From positions 3,886 through 67,885 of the forward strand of contig CAVYXU010000004.1 of assembly GCA_963772565.1 (NCBI GenBank): a stretch of DNA of 64,000 bases, read 5' to 3'. Below are positions 13,432 through 42,219 of the stretch, in pieces. The translations under genes were made by a program, and so were the position numbers. Below the pieces are notes generated by a model. That model did not search any database, was not told where the DNA came from, and saw only the letters and a program-made list of their open reading frames with translations. The number at the start of each line of letters is the position of its first letter. The stretch's first letter is position 1. This DNA is from an uncultured Chloroflexia bacterium. Lineage in GTDB: Bacteria > Chloroflexota > Limnocylindria > Limnocylindrales > CSP1-4.

Positions 13432-15210
<1,779 letters not shown>

Positions 15211-15308
15211 GCCTGCAAGGCTGCGCGGCCCTCGGGCCGACGTCGACGCCCCCCGGTGTCTGACGCCCCCGGACGCCGAACCTGCGTCCATCGGAACCCG
15301 GTCGGGTC

Positions 15309-15314
15309 TACGAT
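15309..15314 (+). promoter_or_regulatory. -10-like hexamer TACGAT 6 nt upstream of ATG
   Basis: TACGAT-gcaccc-ATG. Confidence 0.4.
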
Positions 15315-15320
15315 GCACCC

Positions 15321-15803
15321 ATGTATCTCGACGCCCTCTCCTTTCTCGAAGACGAGCGTGACGCGTTCCGTGCCTACGAGGCCCTCGGCGCGCTGACCGA
15401 CGAACAGCTGGATCAACCCGTTGAAGCGGCCGGCGGCTGGTCCGGGCGCGACCTGATGGGCCACATGGTGGTGTGGCAGGAGGCCGCCCTCGCGACTGCC
15501 AAGGAGCTCGCGATGGGGGAGACGAGCGCCACGATGGCGCGGCTCAACGCGCAGTGGGATATCCCGGGCGAGGGCGACCGGATCAACGAGGAGGCGATGG
15601 CCCGCTTCCGGGCGATGTCGATGGCCGAGGTTCGCGAACAGTTCCGCAACGTGTCGGGCGAGCTGCGCGGCTATCTCACCGTGGTCCCCGAGGTCCGCTG
15701 GATCAAGAACGCGGACAACCAGGAGTACTTCTTCGGCGAGACGACCGAGCACTACCAGGAGCACCTGCCGGCGCTGCAGGCGATCCTCGAGGCTGCCTCG
15801 TGA
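15321..15803 (+). CDS. DinB-fold / ClbS-like four-helix-bundle protein
   Basis: 160 aa with WSGRDLMGHM and TTEHYQEH histidine motifs. Confidence 0.7.
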   Translation: MYLDALSFLEDERDAFRAYEALGALTDEQLDQPVEAAGGWSGRDLMGHMVVWQEAALATAKELAMGETSATMARLNAQWDIPGEGDRINEEAMARFRAMSMAEVREQFRNVSGELRGYLTVVPEVRWIKNADNQEYFFGETTEHYQEHLPALQAILEAAS

Positions 15804-16229
15804 CCGACGTGTCCGGCAACGGGCACTTCAACCCGAACGACGACGGCGAAGACGACGACCGTCCGCTCGATGCGTCGGAGGAGGCCGCGGCGGCCGCCGA
15901 GGCCCTGGCGGAGGGCGATGAGACGCTCGACGAGCGGGTCGAGGGCGTGATCGCCGACCTGGACGGGGTGGAGCGGCGGCGCGACGGCGAGTCGGTGACG
16001 TACCTCGTCGGGCGGGACGGCCTTCGCGGTGCTGATGGAGGATGTGCTCGAGGTCTCGCTCGACCCGGTCGTCGCGTCGGCTGCGCTCAAGACCGCCGAC
16101 ACGATGCAGTCGACGCGCGGCGCGGGCTGGGTCGCGTTCACGCCCGAGGCGATCGATCGCTTTGCCCTGGACCGCGCGGAGGCGTGGGTGCGCAGCGCTC
16201 ACCGGCGAGCGGCTGGGCGCACGACGTAG
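15800..16229 (+). CDS. hypothetical protein with acidic N-terminus and TfoX-N/YjbR-like C-terminus, interrupted by a +1 frameshift near 16010-16022
   Basis: The GTGA start overlaps the upstream stop. High GC3 runs in frame 2 to about 16021, then continues in the 16029..16229 frame. Confidence 0.5.
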
Positions 16230-16422
16230 CGCTGGCGCGGGCGCTCCGCGGCCGCCTCCACCACCTTGACTCACGCAGCGCATCACCACGGTCCCGGGAC
16301 ACGGGTTTCGCGGTGATCTCGCGTCCATCTGGCCCGGAGCCGCCACGCTGGGTTCGCCATTGATGCACCCGGTGAGTCAGGGCCTGGTGCGGCGGGCGAG
16401 GCGGCGTGCAGCGCGCACGAAA

Positions 16423-16447
16423 CGACCCCGGTCGATGACCGGGGTCG
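16423..16447. terminator. GC-rich hairpin between convergent genes (11-bp stem, GAT loop)
   Basis: cgaccccggtc-gat-gaccggggtcg, a perfect inverted repeat. Confidence 0.6.
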
Positions 16448-16490
16448 CGTGCCGTTGGAACGACGCCGGGTTGGTCCCCGGCGAGCCCGT

Positions 16491-36908: not shown

Positions 36909-38330
36909 GTGATGGCTGACGACGGGCTCTACGCTGCGCTGGTCCGGCGCGGGATGACCCGGCGCTCATTCCTCCAGTTCTCGACCGCCATGGCGGCCGC
37001 CCTTGCGCTGCCAGCCGCATACGCCCCCCGGATCGCGGAGGCCGTGGCCAAGGCGCCCCGGCTGCCGGTGATCTGGCTCCGCGGCCAGGCCTGTGGTGGC
37101 GAGACTGAGGCGTTCCTCCGCGCGTCGGACCCGACGGCCGGATCGCTGCTGCTCGACCTGTTGTCGGTCGAGTACCACGAGACGTTGATGGCCCCGACCG
37201 GCGCCGCCGCCGACCTTGCGAGGACCAGCGCGATGGAGCGCTACCCGAACGGGTACCTGGCGGTGGTCGAGGGTTCGATCCCGACCGGAGCCGGTGGCGC
37301 CTACTGCATGGTGGGCGGTCGCGCGATCGCCGACATCGTGCGCGAGGTGAGCGACGGTGCGCTGGCCACGATCGCGGTCGGCGCGTGCGCGTTCGATGGC
37401 GGCGCCCCTGGCGCCGGCGGCGGCGTGACCGACGCCCGCAGCGTGAGCGAGATCATGTCAGGCGGTGGTCCGCTGATCGCGCTGCCGGGCAGCCCGCTCA
37501 ACGTGGACAACCTTGTCGCGACGATCGTCCACTACCTGACGTTCAACGACTGGCCTGCGACCGACGGCCGGGGCCGCCCCCTGTTCGCCTACGGCCCGTT
37601 GATCCACAACGAATGCGAACGTCGGCCGCATTTCGAGTTCGGGGAGTTCGTGCAGGCATGGGGCGACGAGGGCGCCCAGAAGGGCTGGTGCCTGTACAAG
37701 ATGGGCTGCAAGGGTCCGGAGTCGTTCGGAAACTGCGCGACCCAGCGGTTTGCTGAGGGCACGAGCTGGCCGATCCAGGCCGGGCACGGCTGCATCGGCT
37801 GCACGATGCCGGACTTCTGGGACGCGATGAGCCCGTTCTACCGGAGGCTCCCGTCGCCGGTGCCGTTCTTCCCCAACGTGACTGCGGACGGCGTCGGAAC
37901 TGCCCTGGTGGGCGGGATCGGGGCTGTCGCGGCAGTCCACGGCGCCGGCATGTACCTGCGGACGCGCCGCAACCGTCGTGCTGAGCGGCGAGCCGCCGCA
38001 ACAGCCGCAGCAACAGCCGCCACCGCAACAGCCGATGGGACGCCGGTGGCCGTGTCGGTCCCGGTCGACACAACAGCCGCCCGGGTTCGCGCGGTCTCGC
38101 CTGCACCGGCGACGCCCGAGCCGGTTGCCCCCACCGAGCTGGTCCCAGCCCCGCCGGCCCCGGCCACGCCGGATTCCAGTGATCGCCCCGAGCCGGCAAC
38201 GGTCGAGCCGGCAACGGTCGAGCCGGCAACGGTCGAGCCGGTCCTGGCCACGCCGGAATCCGGCGATCGTCCTGATCCCGCGACGCCCGAGCCGGCCCCG
38301 GCCACCGGCGACGATCCCGAGGCGCGCTGA
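36909..38330 (+). CDS. [NiFe]-hydrogenase small subunit, Tat-exported, membrane-anchored (HyaA-like) with long disordered C-terminal tail
   Basis: RRSFLQF twin-arginine signal. Medial and distal cluster ligands are present (HNEC, WCLY, GCKGP, GNCAT, HGCIGC). C-terminal TM helix followed by about 115 aa of A/T/P/E-rich tail. Confidence 0.95.
   Translation: MMADDGLYAALVRRGMTRRSFLQFSTAMAAALALPAAYAPRIAEAVAKAPRLPVIWLRGQACGGETEAFLRASDPTAGSLLLDLLSVEYHETLMAPTGAAADLARTSAMERYPNGYLAVVEGSIPTGAGGAYCMVGGRAIADIVREVSDGALATIAVGACAFDGGAPGAGGGVTDARSVSEIMSGGGPLIALPGSPLNVDNLVATIVHYLTFNDWPATDGRGRPLFAYGPLIHNECERRPHFEFGEFVQAWGDEGAQKGWCLYKMGCKGPESFGNCATQRFAEGTSWPIQAGHGCIGCTMPDFWDAMSPFYRRLPSPVPFFPNVTADGVGTALVGGIGAVAAVHGAGMYLRTRRNRRAERRAAATAAATAATATADGTPVAVSVPVDTTAARVRAVSPAPATPEPVAPTELVPAPPAPATPDSSDRPEPATVEPATVEPATVEPVLATPESGDRPDPATPEPAPATGDDPEAR
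38190..38243 (+). repeat. 15-bp tandem repeat x3.6 (gagccggcaacggtc) encoding EPATV repeats
   Basis: Perfect tandem copies inside the small-subunit tail. Confidence 0.9.
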
Positions 38331-38331
38331 C

Positions 38332-40107
38332 ATGGCCCGGATCGCCATCGACCCTGTCACCCGCGTAGGCGGCCACCTCCGGATCGAGGCGGACGTCGCC
38401 GCCGGCGAGGTCCGGGATGCGTGGAGCGCCGGGACCATGTTCCGGGGCCTGGAGCTGGTCCTCCGCGGCCGCGATCCCCGCGATGCGTGGATGATCGCCG
38501 ACCGCGTCTGCGGCACCTGCACGGGCGTGCATGCTCTGGCGTCCGTGAGGGCCGTGGAGGACGCGCTGGGCATCACGATCCCGGACAACGCCCGGCTCGT
38601 CCGCAACATCCTCGCGGCCACGCTCGCGGTCCGCGACCACATCGTGCAGTTCTACCTCGCCCAGCTTCCGGACTGGGTCGATGCGACGGTCGCGCTGGGC
38701 GCGGACTCCACCGCTGCCTCGACCCTCGCGCGCTCGATGAGCGACTGGCCGCAGTCCAGCCCGGACTACTTCAGCGGCGTCCGCGACCGGCTGGCCACGG
38801 CAACCTCGTCCGGGCAGGCGGGCCCGTTTGCGCCATCGTTCGCCGGTCATCCGGGCTACCAGCTGTCGCCGGAGCTGAGCCTGGTTCTGCTCGCACACGC
38901 GATCGAGGCGCTCGACTGGCAGCGCGACTTCATGCGGATCCACACGCTGCTGGGCGGCCGCGACCCGCACCCGCAGTCGTACCTCGTCGGCGGCGTCTCG
39001 CTGACGCCGCCCTGGGGCGGCCCGCCTGCACGGCGCGCCGGCGAGCATCCGCAGCTGCCGGACCGCAACACGCCGTCGGCGTTGAGCGATGCGGGCCTCA
39101 CCCTGATCGACAACCTGATCAGCAAGGCCCAGACGTTCATCTCGTGGGTCCTGATGCCCGACGCTCTCCAGCTGGCGCAGGCGTACCCGGACTGGGGCAA
39201 GGTCGGCCGGGGGACGGGCAGCTACCTGGCCTTCGGCGACTACCCGGGCGCGGCCGTCGAGGCCGGCAAGCTGTTCCTGCCGCGAGGTCGGATCCTCGGT
39301 GGCAACCTCGCGTCCCTGTCCGAGATGAACGCGACCTCGGTTGCCGAATCGGTGGCTGCCTCCTGGTATGCCCAGGACGACAGCGATGCCGGCCCGCGCC
39401 AACCCGTCAACGGGCGCACCGACCCGGTGTACTCCGGGCCCCCGCTCCCGCTGGTCTCGCTCGAGGGATCCACCCGGTACAGCTGGCTCAAGGCTCCGCG
39501 CTACAACGACCAGCCGATGGAGGTTGGCCCGCTGGCGCGGATGGCGGTTGCCTACGGCGACGGGCAGGTCGATGTCCGGGCAGCCATGAACACGGCGCTC
39601 ACCACGTTGGGGCTCGAGCCGGCCGCGCTGTTCAGCACCCTGGGCCGGATGGTCGCCAGGGCGGTCGAGACGCGGGTCCTCGCCAGCCAGGCAGGCGACT
39701 GGCTGATCGAGCTGCAGGGGAACCTCGCCGCAGGCGACCTCGCGCTGGTCGATGGCGGCCACTGGGATCCCGGCACCTGGCCCGCGTCGGCAGAAGGCTC
39801 GTCGCTGGGTGAGGGGCCGCGGGGTGCCGTGGGCCACTGGGTGTCGATCCGCGACGGCGTCATCGGCGACTACCAGATCGTCGACGCGACCACGTGGAAC
39901 GCTTCTCCGCGTGATGCCACGGGAACGCGCGGCCCGCTCGAGCAGGCGCTGATCGGCACGCGCGTATCCGACCCGGGCCAGCCGCTGGAGATCCTGCGGA
40001 CCGTCCACTCGTTCGATCCGTGCATGGCCTGTGCCGTCCACGTCTTCGATCCGCGCGCCGGCGGCCCGATCCAGATCCGCGTCAACCGCACGGAGACCGC
40101 CCGATGA
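38332..40107 (+). CDS. [NiFe]-hydrogenase large subunit (group 1, HyaB-like)
   Basis: RVCGTCTGVH and DPCMACAVH Ni-Fe ligand motifs, with a C-terminal extension for protease cleavage. Confidence 0.95.
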   Translation: MARIAIDPVTRVGGHLRIEADVAAGEVRDAWSAGTMFRGLELVLRGRDPRDAWMIADRVCGTCTGVHALASVRAVEDALGITIPDNARLVRNILAATLAVRDHIVQFYLAQLPDWVDATVALGADSTAASTLARSMSDWPQSSPDYFSGVRDRLATATSSGQAGPFAPSFAGHPGYQLSPELSLVLLAHAIEALDWQRDFMRIHTLLGGRDPHPQSYLVGGVSLTPPWGGPPARRAGEHPQLPDRNTPSALSDAGLTLIDNLISKAQTFISWVLMPDALQLAQAYPDWGKVGRGTGSYLAFGDYPGAAVEAGKLFLPRGRILGGNLASLSEMNATSVAESVAASWYAQDDSDAGPRQPVNGRTDPVYSGPPLPLVSLEGSTRYSWLKAPRYNDQPMEVGPLARMAVAYGDGQVDVRAAMNTALTTLGLEPAALFSTLGRMVARAVETRVLASQAGDWLIELQGNLAAGDLALVDGGHWDPGTWPASAEGSSLGEGPRGAVGHWVSIRDGVIGDYQIVDATTWNASPRDATGTRGPLEQALIGTRVSDPGQPLEILRTVHSFDPCMACAVHVFDPRAGGPIQIRVNRTETAR

Positions 40108-40940
40108 CGACCGTCCAGAAGCCGTTGCCGGGCCGTGTCGAGGCGGGGCCGACGCCGCCCGTCCTGCCGGTTCCGTCACCCGCGAGCGGGCTCGACCCTG
40201 TGAAGACACCGCCGCCGGTCGCCGAGGCCGCCCGCCCTGTCGACCGGCCCCACGAGCGCGTTCAGCTGTACGTGTGGCAGATCCCCGTGCGCTTCACCCA
40301 CTGGCTGACCGCCGGCTGCATCGTGGTCCTCAGCGTGACCGGCGGCTATATCGCCGATCCGTTCCTCATCGCGCCCGGCGGCGGCGTGATGACGACGATC
40401 CGGTTGATCCACATCCTCACGGCATTCACCTTCCTCATGTCGGGACTGCTCCGGACCTACTGGCTGCTGGCGGGAAACCGCTTCGCTCGCTGGTCTGCAT
40501 TCATTCCGACCTCGCGCTACCAGGCGATGGAGCTGTTCCGCCAGGCCGGGTTCTACGGCTTCATCCGCAAGGAGATCCCGAAGGTCCTGGGCCACAACCA
40601 GCTGGCCGCGACGGCGTACCTCGCGCTGTTCGCGCTCCTGCTCGTCGAGACCGTCACCGGGTTTGCCCTCGACGGCCTGATGGGGTCGGAGCCCGGTGCG
40701 ACGCTGTTCGGCTGGCTGCGCGAGCTGATGGGTCCGCAGCTGCTCCGCCTGATCCACCACCTCGCGATGTGGGCGATCCTCGCGATCGCGCTGTTCCACG
40801 TGTATAGCTGCGTGCTCGTCGATCACATCGAGAAGAACGGGCTGATGTCGAGCATCTTCAGCGGCTTCAAGTTCCCCACCAGGGAAGAGGTCGTCGAGTC
40901 GCGCGACGGCGGTGCGGACCTCCTGGAGCGCATCGAATGA
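40104..40940 (+). CDS. Ni/Fe-hydrogenase b-type cytochrome subunit (HyaC-like)
   Basis: The start overlaps the upstream stop (ATGA). Four TM helices and an RFTHW motif. Confidence 0.85.
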   Translation: MTTVQKPLPGRVEAGPTPPVLPVPSPASGLDPVKTPPPVAEAARPVDRPHERVQLYVWQIPVRFTHWLTAGCIVVLSVTGGYIADPFLIAPGGGVMTTIRLIHILTAFTFLMSGLLRTYWLLAGNRFARWSAFIPTSRYQAMELFRQAGFYGFIRKEIPKVLGHNQLAATAYLALFALLLVETVTGFALDGLMGSEPGATLFGWLRELMGPQLLRLIHHLAMWAILAIALFHVYSCVLVDHIEKNGLMSSIFSGFKFPTREEVVESRDGGADLLERIE

Positions 40941-41476
40941 CCCGCGGCGACCGCCCGATCGTGGTCATCGGTATCGGCAACGTCCTGCTCGGCGACGACG
41001 GCGTCGGCGTCCGCGCGGTCGAGGCACTGGGCCGGATGGCCGAGGCCGACCCCGGGGTGCTGCCTCGCGGCACTCGACTCCTCGACGGTGGGACGCTCGG
41101 GCTCAATCTTCTGAACGACCTCGACGACGCACGGGCGCTCATCCTGGTCGACGCCGTCGACCTTGGACGTGCGCCGGGAACGGTGAGCGTGATGCGGGGC
41201 GATGAGCTCGCTGTCGCGGACGGTTTCCGGACCCCGTCGCGCCAGGGTGGGGTGGGGGAGCTGCTGGCGACCGCGCGGCTGCTCGCGATCCTGCCGCCTG
41301 ACGTGCTCCTGGTCGGTGTCCAGGCGGGCGCGATCAATGTTGGCCAGGCATTGTCGCGCGAGGTCGCGGCGGCGATGCCTGCGGTGGCCGAGGCCATTCG
41401 GCGCGAAGCCCATGCGCTGGCGGGCTCGAGTCCGTCGTCATCCCGGACCCCGGAGCTGGCAGGAGCGGTCTCATGA
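40937..41476 (+). CDS. hydrogenase maturation endopeptidase (HyaD/HybD family)
   Basis: VIGIGNVLLGDDGVG and LVDAV motifs. The start overlaps the upstream stop. Confidence 0.9.
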   Translation: MTRGDRPIVVIGIGNVLLGDDGVGVRAVEALGRMAEADPGVLPRGTRLLDGGTLGLNLLNDLDDARALILVDAVDLGRAPGTVSVMRGDELAVADGFRTPSRQGGVGELLATARLLAILPPDVLLVGVQAGAINVGQALSREVAAAMPAVAEAIRREAHALAGSSPSSSRTPELAGAVS

Positions 41477-42219
41477 GCACCAGGCTCGACCGGGGGCTGC
41501 GCGCCCTCATCGTTGCGAACTTCGTGGTCGTTGCCGCGCTCGCGGGCCTGATGGTCGGCGGGTGGCTCCAGATCCTCCCGGACCTCGATGCACAGCCCAG
41601 CCCGAGCGCGTCCGCGGCGCCATCGATCGAACTGATGCAGATGGGGCTGGCCCACATCCCGACCTCGAACGACTGCCTCCTGTGCCACGACCAGGGCGGG
41701 GAGGGGGGTCTCAAGCCGATCCCTGCGCTCGGGCATCCGCTCGACGGCTGGGGCGCCTGCCTCGTGTGCCACACCAACGAGGACCTGGGTCGCGCGGCAC
41801 CGGGCCATGAGGACATCGCCCAGTCCGAGTGCCTCAACTGCCACACGGTGGCGCAGCCCGGGCCAGCGATCACGCAGGCGCACTCGGAGCTCAACCAGCC
41901 CTGCCTCGACTGCCACGGCAGCGTTGCCCACCTTCCGTCGAGCATGGTCGGGCGCAACCAGGACGATTGCTGGCTGTGCCACAAGCCGGCGGCGGAGAAG
42001 CCACCCCAGGAGCCGCACCCGAACAACCCGAACCTCACCTGCCGGTCGTGCCACCAGGCGTCGAATGTCGGCGGCCTGCCGATCGACCACGCGCTCCGCG
42101 CCGACGACACGTGCGTCCTGTGCCACGACATGGACCGCCTCGGCGCGACGCCGACGCTGCCCGGCACGAGGCCGACCCTGCCCGCAACGACGCCTGTACC
42201 GCCCGCCGACGGAACCTAG
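41473..42219 (+). CDS. membrane-anchored heptaheme c-type cytochrome
   Basis: N-terminal TM helix then seven CxxCH motifs (CLLCH, CLVCH, CLNCH, CLDCH, CWLCH, CRSCH, CVLCH). Each of motifs 2-7 is preceded by a His 8-18 residues upstream. ATGA overlap with the protease gene. Confidence 0.9.
   Translation: MSTRLDRGLRALIVANFVVVAALAGLMVGGWLQILPDLDAQPSPSASAAPSIELMQMGLAHIPTSNDCLLCHDQGGEGGLKPIPALGHPLDGWGACLVCHTNEDLGRAAPGHEDIAQSECLNCHTVAQPGPAITQAHSELNQPCLDCHGSVAHLPSSMVGRNQDDCWLCHKPAAEKPPQEPHPNNPNLTCRSCHQASNVGGLPIDHALRADDTCVLCHDMDRLGATPTLPGTRPTLPATTPVPPADGT

Follow-up and report, generated by a model that had tools for sequence, protein, structure and literature searches.

A glutamate of the large subunit (Glu28 in Hyd-1 of Escherichia coli) has been called the universal proton gate of [NiFe] hydrogenases (PMC8020662). 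In the periplasmic group 1b enzyme of Desulfovibrio vulgaris Miyazaki F (DvMF), neutron and X-ray data place the Sγ of Cys546 3.20 Å from Glu34 of the large subunit (L) and Glu34(L) 2.52 Å from Thr18 of the small subunit (S), whose hydroxyl is directed at Glu16(S) (PMC10498676). Two mutants bear on other ways out: in the E28Q variant of Hyd-1, water or hydroxide entering beside residue 28 rescues the blocked proton transfer (PMC8020662), and in HynL of Thiocapsa roseopersicina (group 1e) the E14Q variant retains about 50% activity and an Arg-Asp-His route is backed by mutagenesis (PMC3325256). In this work, we analyzed the large subunit of a [NiFe] hydrogenase (591 aa, 38332-40107) encoded in a 64,000-nucleotide window of an uncultured Chloroflexia bacterium from soil (GenBank assembly GCA_963772565.1, contig CAVYXU010000004.1, positions 3,886 to 67,885), a metagenome-assembled genome (MAG), in which a glycine stands in the place of this glutamate. 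Coordinates are those of the window, and all the features given lie on its forward strand.

The large-subunit frame starts with the ATG at 38332, its N-terminus reads MARIAIDPVTRVGGHLRIE, and codon 13 is GGC (Gly) at 38368-38370. In ungapped phmmer alignments with solved structures (DPVTRVGGHLRIEA in the query against DPITRIEGHLRIEA in Allochromatium vinosum 3MYR and DPITRIEGHMRCEV in Hyd-1), Gly13 occupies the column of the Glu of DPITRIEGH in 3MYR, in Salmonella Hyd-5 (4C3O) and in Hyd-1, where it is the equivalent of Glu28; in 5LRY, a chain of the E28D mutant, this column holds the Asp of TRIDGH. A previous reading of this DNA from its letters alone (the sequence-only reading) had reported the glycine and its codon, together with the presence of all four Ni-Fe cysteines and of the PRG arginine, and these statements are borne out by the direct reading of the window and by the structure alignment (C60, C63, C564, C567 and R497). 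It had also considered that the Glu might turn out to be present and merely shifted by one residue; this is ruled out, as the alignment is ungapped and neither neighbour of Gly13 is acidic. A column scan for another acidic residue of the N-terminal loop that might compensate for the loss found none specific to the clade described below, the sole new invariant carboxylate being Asp518. A change of GGC to a Glu codon would take two base changes.

The lack of the glutamate extends to a whole clade. A search of 5.8 billion proteins yielded 120 relatives with 55-94% identity to the query, one of them truncated at the N-terminus, and in the full-length ones the gate position is mostly G, rarely D, N, S or A, and never E; overall, position 13 is Gly in 112/121 full-length clade sequences. 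A pattern-based scan of one genome per species gave 80 loci, among which the one 94% identical to the query, from a Chloroflexia/Limnocylindria soil MAG, also has G, whereas the other 79, with 46-55% identity, all read RIEGH (E-type relatives from here on). In a tree of 201 sequences, the 121 full-length Glu-less sequences and the truncated one formed a single clade with no Glu-bearing member. This clade was also recovered in an IQ-TREE subset (36/36, ultrafast bootstrap, UFBoot, of 71) and stands apart on a stem about 0.18 substitutions per site long, its sisters being two Limnocylindrales E-type enzymes joined to it at a node with a support of 100. Its nearest relatives outside, at 46-56% identity, are 1e/1f-like enzymes of Chloroflexota (including Roseiflexus), Nitrospirota, Acidobacteriota and Geobacteraceae, which we take to belong to HydDB group 1f. 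Across independent assemblies the glycine is encoded by GGC, GGT or GGG, and the rare states D, N and S by GAC, AAC and AGC, each one step away from a Gly codon, and dN/dS is 0.17 against the closest relative (L001) and 0.18 for another close pair. We consider it very probable that the loss is a real, selected trait of this lineage in an enzyme that bears its cofactor and, as far as sampled, the lineage appears confined to Limnocylindria-type Chloroflexota. The sequence-only reading had allowed for a lineage that generally lacks the Glu and has already been described. The first half of this holds; as for the second, our literature search found no published description of a natural group 1 lineage without the Glu or of Limnocylindria enzymes of this type.

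A column-by-column comparison of 122 clade members with the 79 E-type relatives showed that the replacement of E by G13 is accompanied by others. The motif YQxVVP(S/T)TWN of the E-type relatives is YQxVD(A/G)(S/T)TWN in the clade; Asp518 (39883-39885) is D in 122/122 members, with no change anywhere within the clade, against Val in 79/79 E-type relatives, and position 519 is A or G instead of P. The Val of CGVC gives way to T, S, A or M (Thr62 in the query, inside the N-terminal motif that binds Ni, C60-G-T-C63 at 38509-38520), and Ser491 takes the place of a Gly. An insertion of 17 residues absent from the E-type relatives (residues 225-241, 39004-39054) carries the invariant W228, G229, G230, P231, H239 and P240. 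The Val matched by Thr62 is the gas-gate residue, V74 in D. fructosovorans. The insertion follows an NPHP...VGG segment that presumably faces the proximal Fe-S cluster (the region of Hyd-1 H229), and it may contact the atypical proximal cluster or the extra cytochrome.

Several residues around the active site vary within the same clade. The pendant arginine, present in the query as Arg497 (39820-39822; Hyd-1 R509), is R in 102 of the 122 members, G in 17, K in 2 and V in 1, with a Fitch minimum of 7 changes. At the canopy aspartate (D562; Hyd-1 D574) we counted D in 77, A in 26, N in 8, S in 6, G in 3 and E in 2, with a minimum of 14 changes. Position 15 is H in 109 members, Q in 10, R in 1 and P in 1, the remaining sequence being truncated, and position 67 is H in 109 and Q in 13. 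These four sites are conserved in 79/79 or 78/79 of the E-type relatives. The motif around the pendant arginine reads EAPGGA in L091 and L096, SPVGA in P0112 and PKG in P0074 and P0086. Fixed or nearly so in the clade are C60, C63, C564, C567, the Mg-binding Glu41, H103, H213, H570 and D518. The comparison thus indicates that the metal site and the new Asp are strictly constrained, whereas the classical outer sphere is not.

Several other features of the large subunit are those of a group 1 enzyme. It spans positions 1-508 of 508 of PF00374 (E = 5.2e-176); its best matches are all group 1 enzymes, with A. vinosum 3MYR (group 1e) as the best solved structure (513.6 bits, residues 3-570), and its best NCBIfam matches are group 1 large subunits of the Hyd-1 and Hyd-2 type, with scores under the equivalog cut-offs. 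The Ni-Fe ligands are complete, with two CxxC motifs, the second within D562-P-C564-M-A-C567-A-V-H570 (40015-40041), and the C-terminal H570; the pendant Arg and the canopy Asp residues are likewise in place in the query (R497, D102 and D562, corresponding to Hyd-1 R509, D118 and D574), and the gate Glu expected of a group 1 enzyme is missing here as it is across the clade. H570 is followed by a C-terminal extension of 21 aa plus the stop (40042-40107), which would be cleaved off by the maturation protease encoded in the operon. Two clade members, L099 (genome G038) and L109 (genome G029), have a stop directly after the C-terminal VH and no extension for such a protease. The His-rich motif HxHxxHxxHxH is found in most membrane-bound enzymes (PMC3325256). 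In the query this motif (canonical HDHxxHxxHxH) has degenerated to R101-D102-H103-I-V-Q106-F-Y-L109-A-Q111 (38632-38664), or RDHIVQFYLAQ, in which, of the histidines, the second alone is retained, and nothing is left but the Asp-His pair at the core of the alternative proton route. This reduction belongs to the sub-branch of the query: clade member L091 still reads HFYHLH, so the loss of the motif came later.

The small subunit (36909-38330) has a twin-arginine translocation (TAT) signal (RRSFL), PF01058 and PF14720 domains, a C-terminal anchor and a long tail, and its matches to TIGR00391 (E = 7e-116) and to TAT signal models identify it as an exported small subunit with three Fe-S cluster domains. 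Its residues 60-65, Q-A-C-G-G-E (37086-37103), contain the counterpart of E16-C17-T18-G19-C20 of DvMF and present Ala, Gly and Glu at the sites of Glu16, Thr18 and Cys20, and the ligands of the proximal cluster are atypical. With Gly in the large subunit and Gly plus Ala in the small one, all three side chains of the canonical relay are gone in the query, and the link drawn by the sequence-only reading between the large-subunit glycine and changes in the small subunit was apt. In the clade the motif is Q(A/T/G/D/S)C(G/A)G(N/E/D/S), and in the E-type relatives QDC(A/T)G(C/N/D). The change of Thr18 to Gly was considered as an invariant marker of the clade and rejected, since, next to a majority with Gly, three members have Ala, which is also common in the E-type relatives.

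The large subunit is the second gene of a translationally coupled operon that comprises the small subunit, the large subunit, a cytochrome b, a protease and a multihaem cytochrome c. The cytochrome b gene (40104-40940) overlaps the large-subunit stop by ATGA and scores 132.4 bits with TIGR02125 (cut-off 121.5). The HyaD/HybD-type maturation endopeptidase (40937-41476) scores 119.4 bits with the superfamily model TIGR00072 (cut-off 47.45) and 100 bits with the HyaD/HybD subfamily model TIGR00140, under its cut-off of 151.8; the enzyme thus has a cytochrome b partner, a dedicated endopeptidase and a C-terminal extension for it to cleave. The multihaem cytochrome c gene (41473-42219) ends the operon. 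The same five genes, with partly syntenic flanks, were found at six other clade loci, and the multihaem cytochrome c closes every full-length clade operon inspected. At the E-type sister loci L002, L004, L006 and L007 (4/5 loci), the neighbouring genes resemble cytochrome b, a protease where recognizable, and hyp-like genes, and no CxxCH-rich gene was found downstream of the large subunit in five E-type relative loci. No kinase gene is present in the query operon. Judged by its sequence, the query shows every feature of an exported, membrane-anchored Ni-Fe uptake hydrogenase except the canonical proton relay.

Compared with the described enzymes, the query shares the fold, the Ni-Fe cysteines, the PRG arginine and the Asp-His core with the Isp-type group 1e enzymes of A. 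vinosum (3MYR) and T. roseopersicina (HynSL); these, however, keep the Glu, the full HxHxxHxxHxH and VVPS, have no 17-residue insertion, and are partnered by Isp1/2 instead of a cytochrome b plus a multihaem cytochrome c. The query is built like E. coli Hyd-1 (group 1d), with a TAT small subunit, a large subunit, a cytochrome b and a protease; in Hyd-1, however, the Glu is native, R509, D118 and D574 are strictly conserved and the proximal cluster is of the 6-Cys type, whereas the query naturally lacks the Glu and has fewer cysteines in its proximal motif. The nearest outside relatives, i.e. the 1f enzymes (Geobacter Hya, Frankia synton-3, Roseiflexus, Acidobacteria) and the Limnocylindria E-type, have a cytochrome b partner, and in the 1f-like and E-type enzymes the small-subunit motif is QDC(A/T)G(C/N/D) and the Cys20 site is often not Cys, similar to the query. 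The sizes of the Frankia 1f subunits, about 573 aa for the large and 410-420 aa for the small, also resemble those of the query enzyme (PMC11879354). Unlike the clade, the 79 sampled E-type relatives all show RIEGH and VVP, retain the Arg and canopy Asp, and have no insertion. The periplasmic DvMF enzyme (group 1b) has a multihaem cytochrome c partner, as the query does, but the query lacks all three of its relay side chains. Group 2b sensors have modified active-site surroundings, as the query has, and low turnover, but they are cytoplasmic, without a TAT signal, a cytochrome b or a C-terminal extension. They presumably retain the Glu (RVEGD).

As regards its function, the enzyme is likely to be catalytically competent in H2 oxidation. 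On balance, we favor the interpretation that the operon encodes a functional, extracytoplasmic, membrane-bound uptake [NiFe] hydrogenase of a distinct group 1 lineage, with a proton exit re-routed via water and/or Asp518. The canonical exit from the terminal Cys to the large-subunit Glu, Thr18(S) and Glu16(S) would have been abandoned in the lineage. By standard residue volumes, the exchange of Glu, Thr and Glu for Gly, Gly and Ala would free about 180 Å3 beside Cys564, in which several waters could fit, and protons might exit by ordered water in this space, probably relayed by Asp518. This residue is proposed as the new relay because it is the only new invariant carboxylate specific to the clade. 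On its strand, we assume from the Desulfovibrio structures that a Mg-binding carbonyl lies two residues before it and a Ser/Thr hydrogen-bonding the Fe-bound cyanide two residues after. That water and/or Asp518 constitute the main proton exit is a more tentative proposal, which we would not yet call probable. The Arg497-Asp102-His103 route could serve as a second exit in the query; it is not an answer for the whole clade, because the Arg is missing in 16% of the members. A bolder version, which we hold to be rather unlikely, is that the catalytic proton acceptor has moved from the loop Glu to an Asp at the site of Hyd-1 V530, with Gly13 and small residues of the small subunit providing a water-filled link, so that the "universal" Glu would be dispensable, as would, in some members, the pendant Arg and the canopy Asp. 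The strand of the V530 site presumably extends from the Mg site to the Fe(CN) ligands. If true, evolution would have arrived at a second outer-sphere way of activating H2 at the same Ni-Fe site.

The Glu-less enzyme is not the only hydrogenase of these bacteria. Among 201 genomes of the same class, the Glu-less type is present in 12-13, and 9 of these (G200, G038, G098, G035, G053, G188, G062, G179 and G002; loci L094-L122) also encode a highly conserved canonical E-type group 1 paralogue with the motifs RIEGH, HFYHLHALD, EAPRGALGHW and YQAVVPSTWN; seven further genomes have the E-type enzyme alone. This distribution suggests that two uptake hydrogenases share out the work in Limnocylindria. 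In the query assembly, which is 80.5% complete, a canonical group 1 paralogue was not found; it encodes two further large subunits that are group-3-like and keep the Glu (RIEGH and RVEGE; contig C5, ~430-2490, and contig C77, ~15130-16480; loci L082 and L083).

Several points weigh against the re-routed exit. The support for clade monophyly is moderate, with the shared 17-residue insertion favoring it independently. The AlphaFold2 (AF2) model of the large subunit (pLDDT 81.9, pTM 0.87) has a confidence below 50 at residues 8-14 and 223-242, and the three-dimensional position of Asp518 is one that we infer; this residue may be too far from Cys564 for a direct hand-over of protons, and the Val that it replaces presumably forms part of the wall of the Fe-bound CO's pocket. 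The query genome yielded no HypD, which we attribute to the incompleteness of the assembly because 11/13 genomes with the Glu-less type have it. Furthermore, the loss of the pendant Arg in 20/122 members, the change of the canopy Asp in 45/122 and the variability of His15 and His67 could reflect a generally relaxed catalytic demand instead of a new path. The enzyme would then work slowly as a second hydrogenase, perhaps one of high affinity or with a shifted bias, or would serve as a redox module whose role is in part new; selection for fast proton gating would have ceased, and the Gly would reflect a loss of constraint. It is in keeping with this idea that the equivalents of E28, H30, the gas-gate Val, H82, R509 and D574 vary in the clade and are 100% conserved in the 79 E-type relatives, that most genomes with the Glu-less type (9 of 12-13) hold a canonical paralogue able to do the bulk of H2 oxidation, and that a multihaem cytochrome c, which four E-type sister operons lack, has been added to the operon. 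Nonetheless, a position 13 that is nearly always Gly and never Glu, together with the invariance of Asp518 and of the insertion motif, speaks of new constraints and not of drift, the low dN/dS points the same way, and the query assembly offers no canonical group 1 paralogue; we therefore regard this explanation as improbable. Slightly less improbable, though still unlikely, is an active hydrogenase that uses the known route from the pendant Arg via Asp and the second His to the surface, with no direct role for Gly13 and Asp518. The query has R497, D102 and H103; H103 is kept in 121/122 and D102 in 117/122 clade members, and H103 is the one histidine left of the five in the His-rich motif, just as only His104 matters in T. 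roseopersicina (PMC3325256). Such a route cannot be the solution for the whole clade, however, given that the Arg has been lost through at least 7 independent changes, and it leaves the invariance of Asp518 and the insertion unexplained.

The sequence-only reading had offered altered catalysis, a different proton path, a sensory role or a degenerate enzyme, and is partly supported by our results. The different proton path fits best, because the relay is missing at three positions while purifying selection has preserved the metal ligands, the protease and the operon. A regulatory H2-sensing hydrogenase might be suggested by the altered active-site surroundings, by the members from G038 and G029 that lack the C-terminal extension, like sensors, and by a two-component system upstream at two loci. 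These upstream genes are, however, KdpD/KdpE-like and not conserved beside the operon, the best matches of the query are all to group 1, and its TAT signal, membrane anchor, cytochrome b, protease, exported multihaem cytochrome and C-terminal extension are at odds with group 2b sensors, which are cytoplasmic, lack TAT signal and extension and have a PAS-kinase partner, so that we deem this role very improbable. Degeneration is contradicted by the clade-wide conservation and the dN/dS of 0.17. As to an error of sequencing or assembly, or a pseudogene in decay, the origin of the sequence from an incomplete MAG without a detected HypD could raise the suspicion, but the same state in 121 independent sequences with synonymous Gly codons, the two base changes that separate GGC from Glu, the intact 591-aa frame, the match to the full Pfam model and the purifying selection make it hardly credible. 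What our analysis adds to the sequence-only reading is the lineage-wide nature of the trait, the invariant Asp518, the 17-residue insertion and the variable pendant Arg and canopy Asp.

The glutamate is also missing outside this clade. In a set of 70 diverse representatives of 50%-identity clusters near the family, in which the Glu-less clade collapsed to one or two, 18/70 lack it as a result of at least 9 changes; Glu-less lineages therefore recur, and the Limnocylindria clade is the best-sampled example. Position 518 is D, S or G in 10/18 Glu-less representatives versus 3/52 Glu-bearing ones (Fisher p = 2e-5, uncorrected for phylogeny), which suggests that the gate position and position 518 are functionally coupled. 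Six deep-branching group-1-like sequences (P0166, P0209, P0279, P0239, P0253 and P0276) have neither the gate Glu nor the pendant Arg and keep the C-terminal Cys motif. Among the related loci we also noted putative selenocysteine (Sec, U) codons in the N-terminal motif, which reads RxUGxU, with both cysteines replaced, in 29 loci (e.g. L011, L016-L019, L024 and L027) and RxCGxU in 15 (e.g. L013, L015, L025 and L031), the C-terminal DPCxxC remaining Cys. N-terminal UXXU, UXXC and CXXU motifs have been reported as new for Group 4, with two Group 1 sequences with CXXU cited (PMC13582414, 2026); a large Group 1 set with putative double Sec looks unreported.

Arguments about how [NiFe] hydrogenases work rest for the most part on a small number of residues regarded as invariant, namely the Glu of the gate, the pendant Arg and the Asp residues of the canopy. 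To our knowledge, whether they are necessary has so far been examined almost exclusively in mutants engineered from three or four model enzymes. Whereas the hydrogenase family itself is known, the loss of the Glu by a whole lineage and the changes that accompany it appear to be new. In this lineage the metal site and the means of its maturation persist, the Glu has disappeared from all members and the Arg from one in six, and an Asp and an insertion have become fixed. Being conserved, environmentally widespread and under purifying selection, the lineage would provide a natural test of which outer-sphere residues are needed and of what other proton exits exist. Its members are sequences from nature that would do without the textbook gate and, in some cases, without the pendant Arg, and they suggest variants that could be introduced into the laboratory model enzymes. 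From the ecological point of view, they point to a second, specialized enzyme for H2, equipped with a multihaem cytochrome of its own, in the Limnocylindria, which are abundant in soil and freshwater but uncultured.

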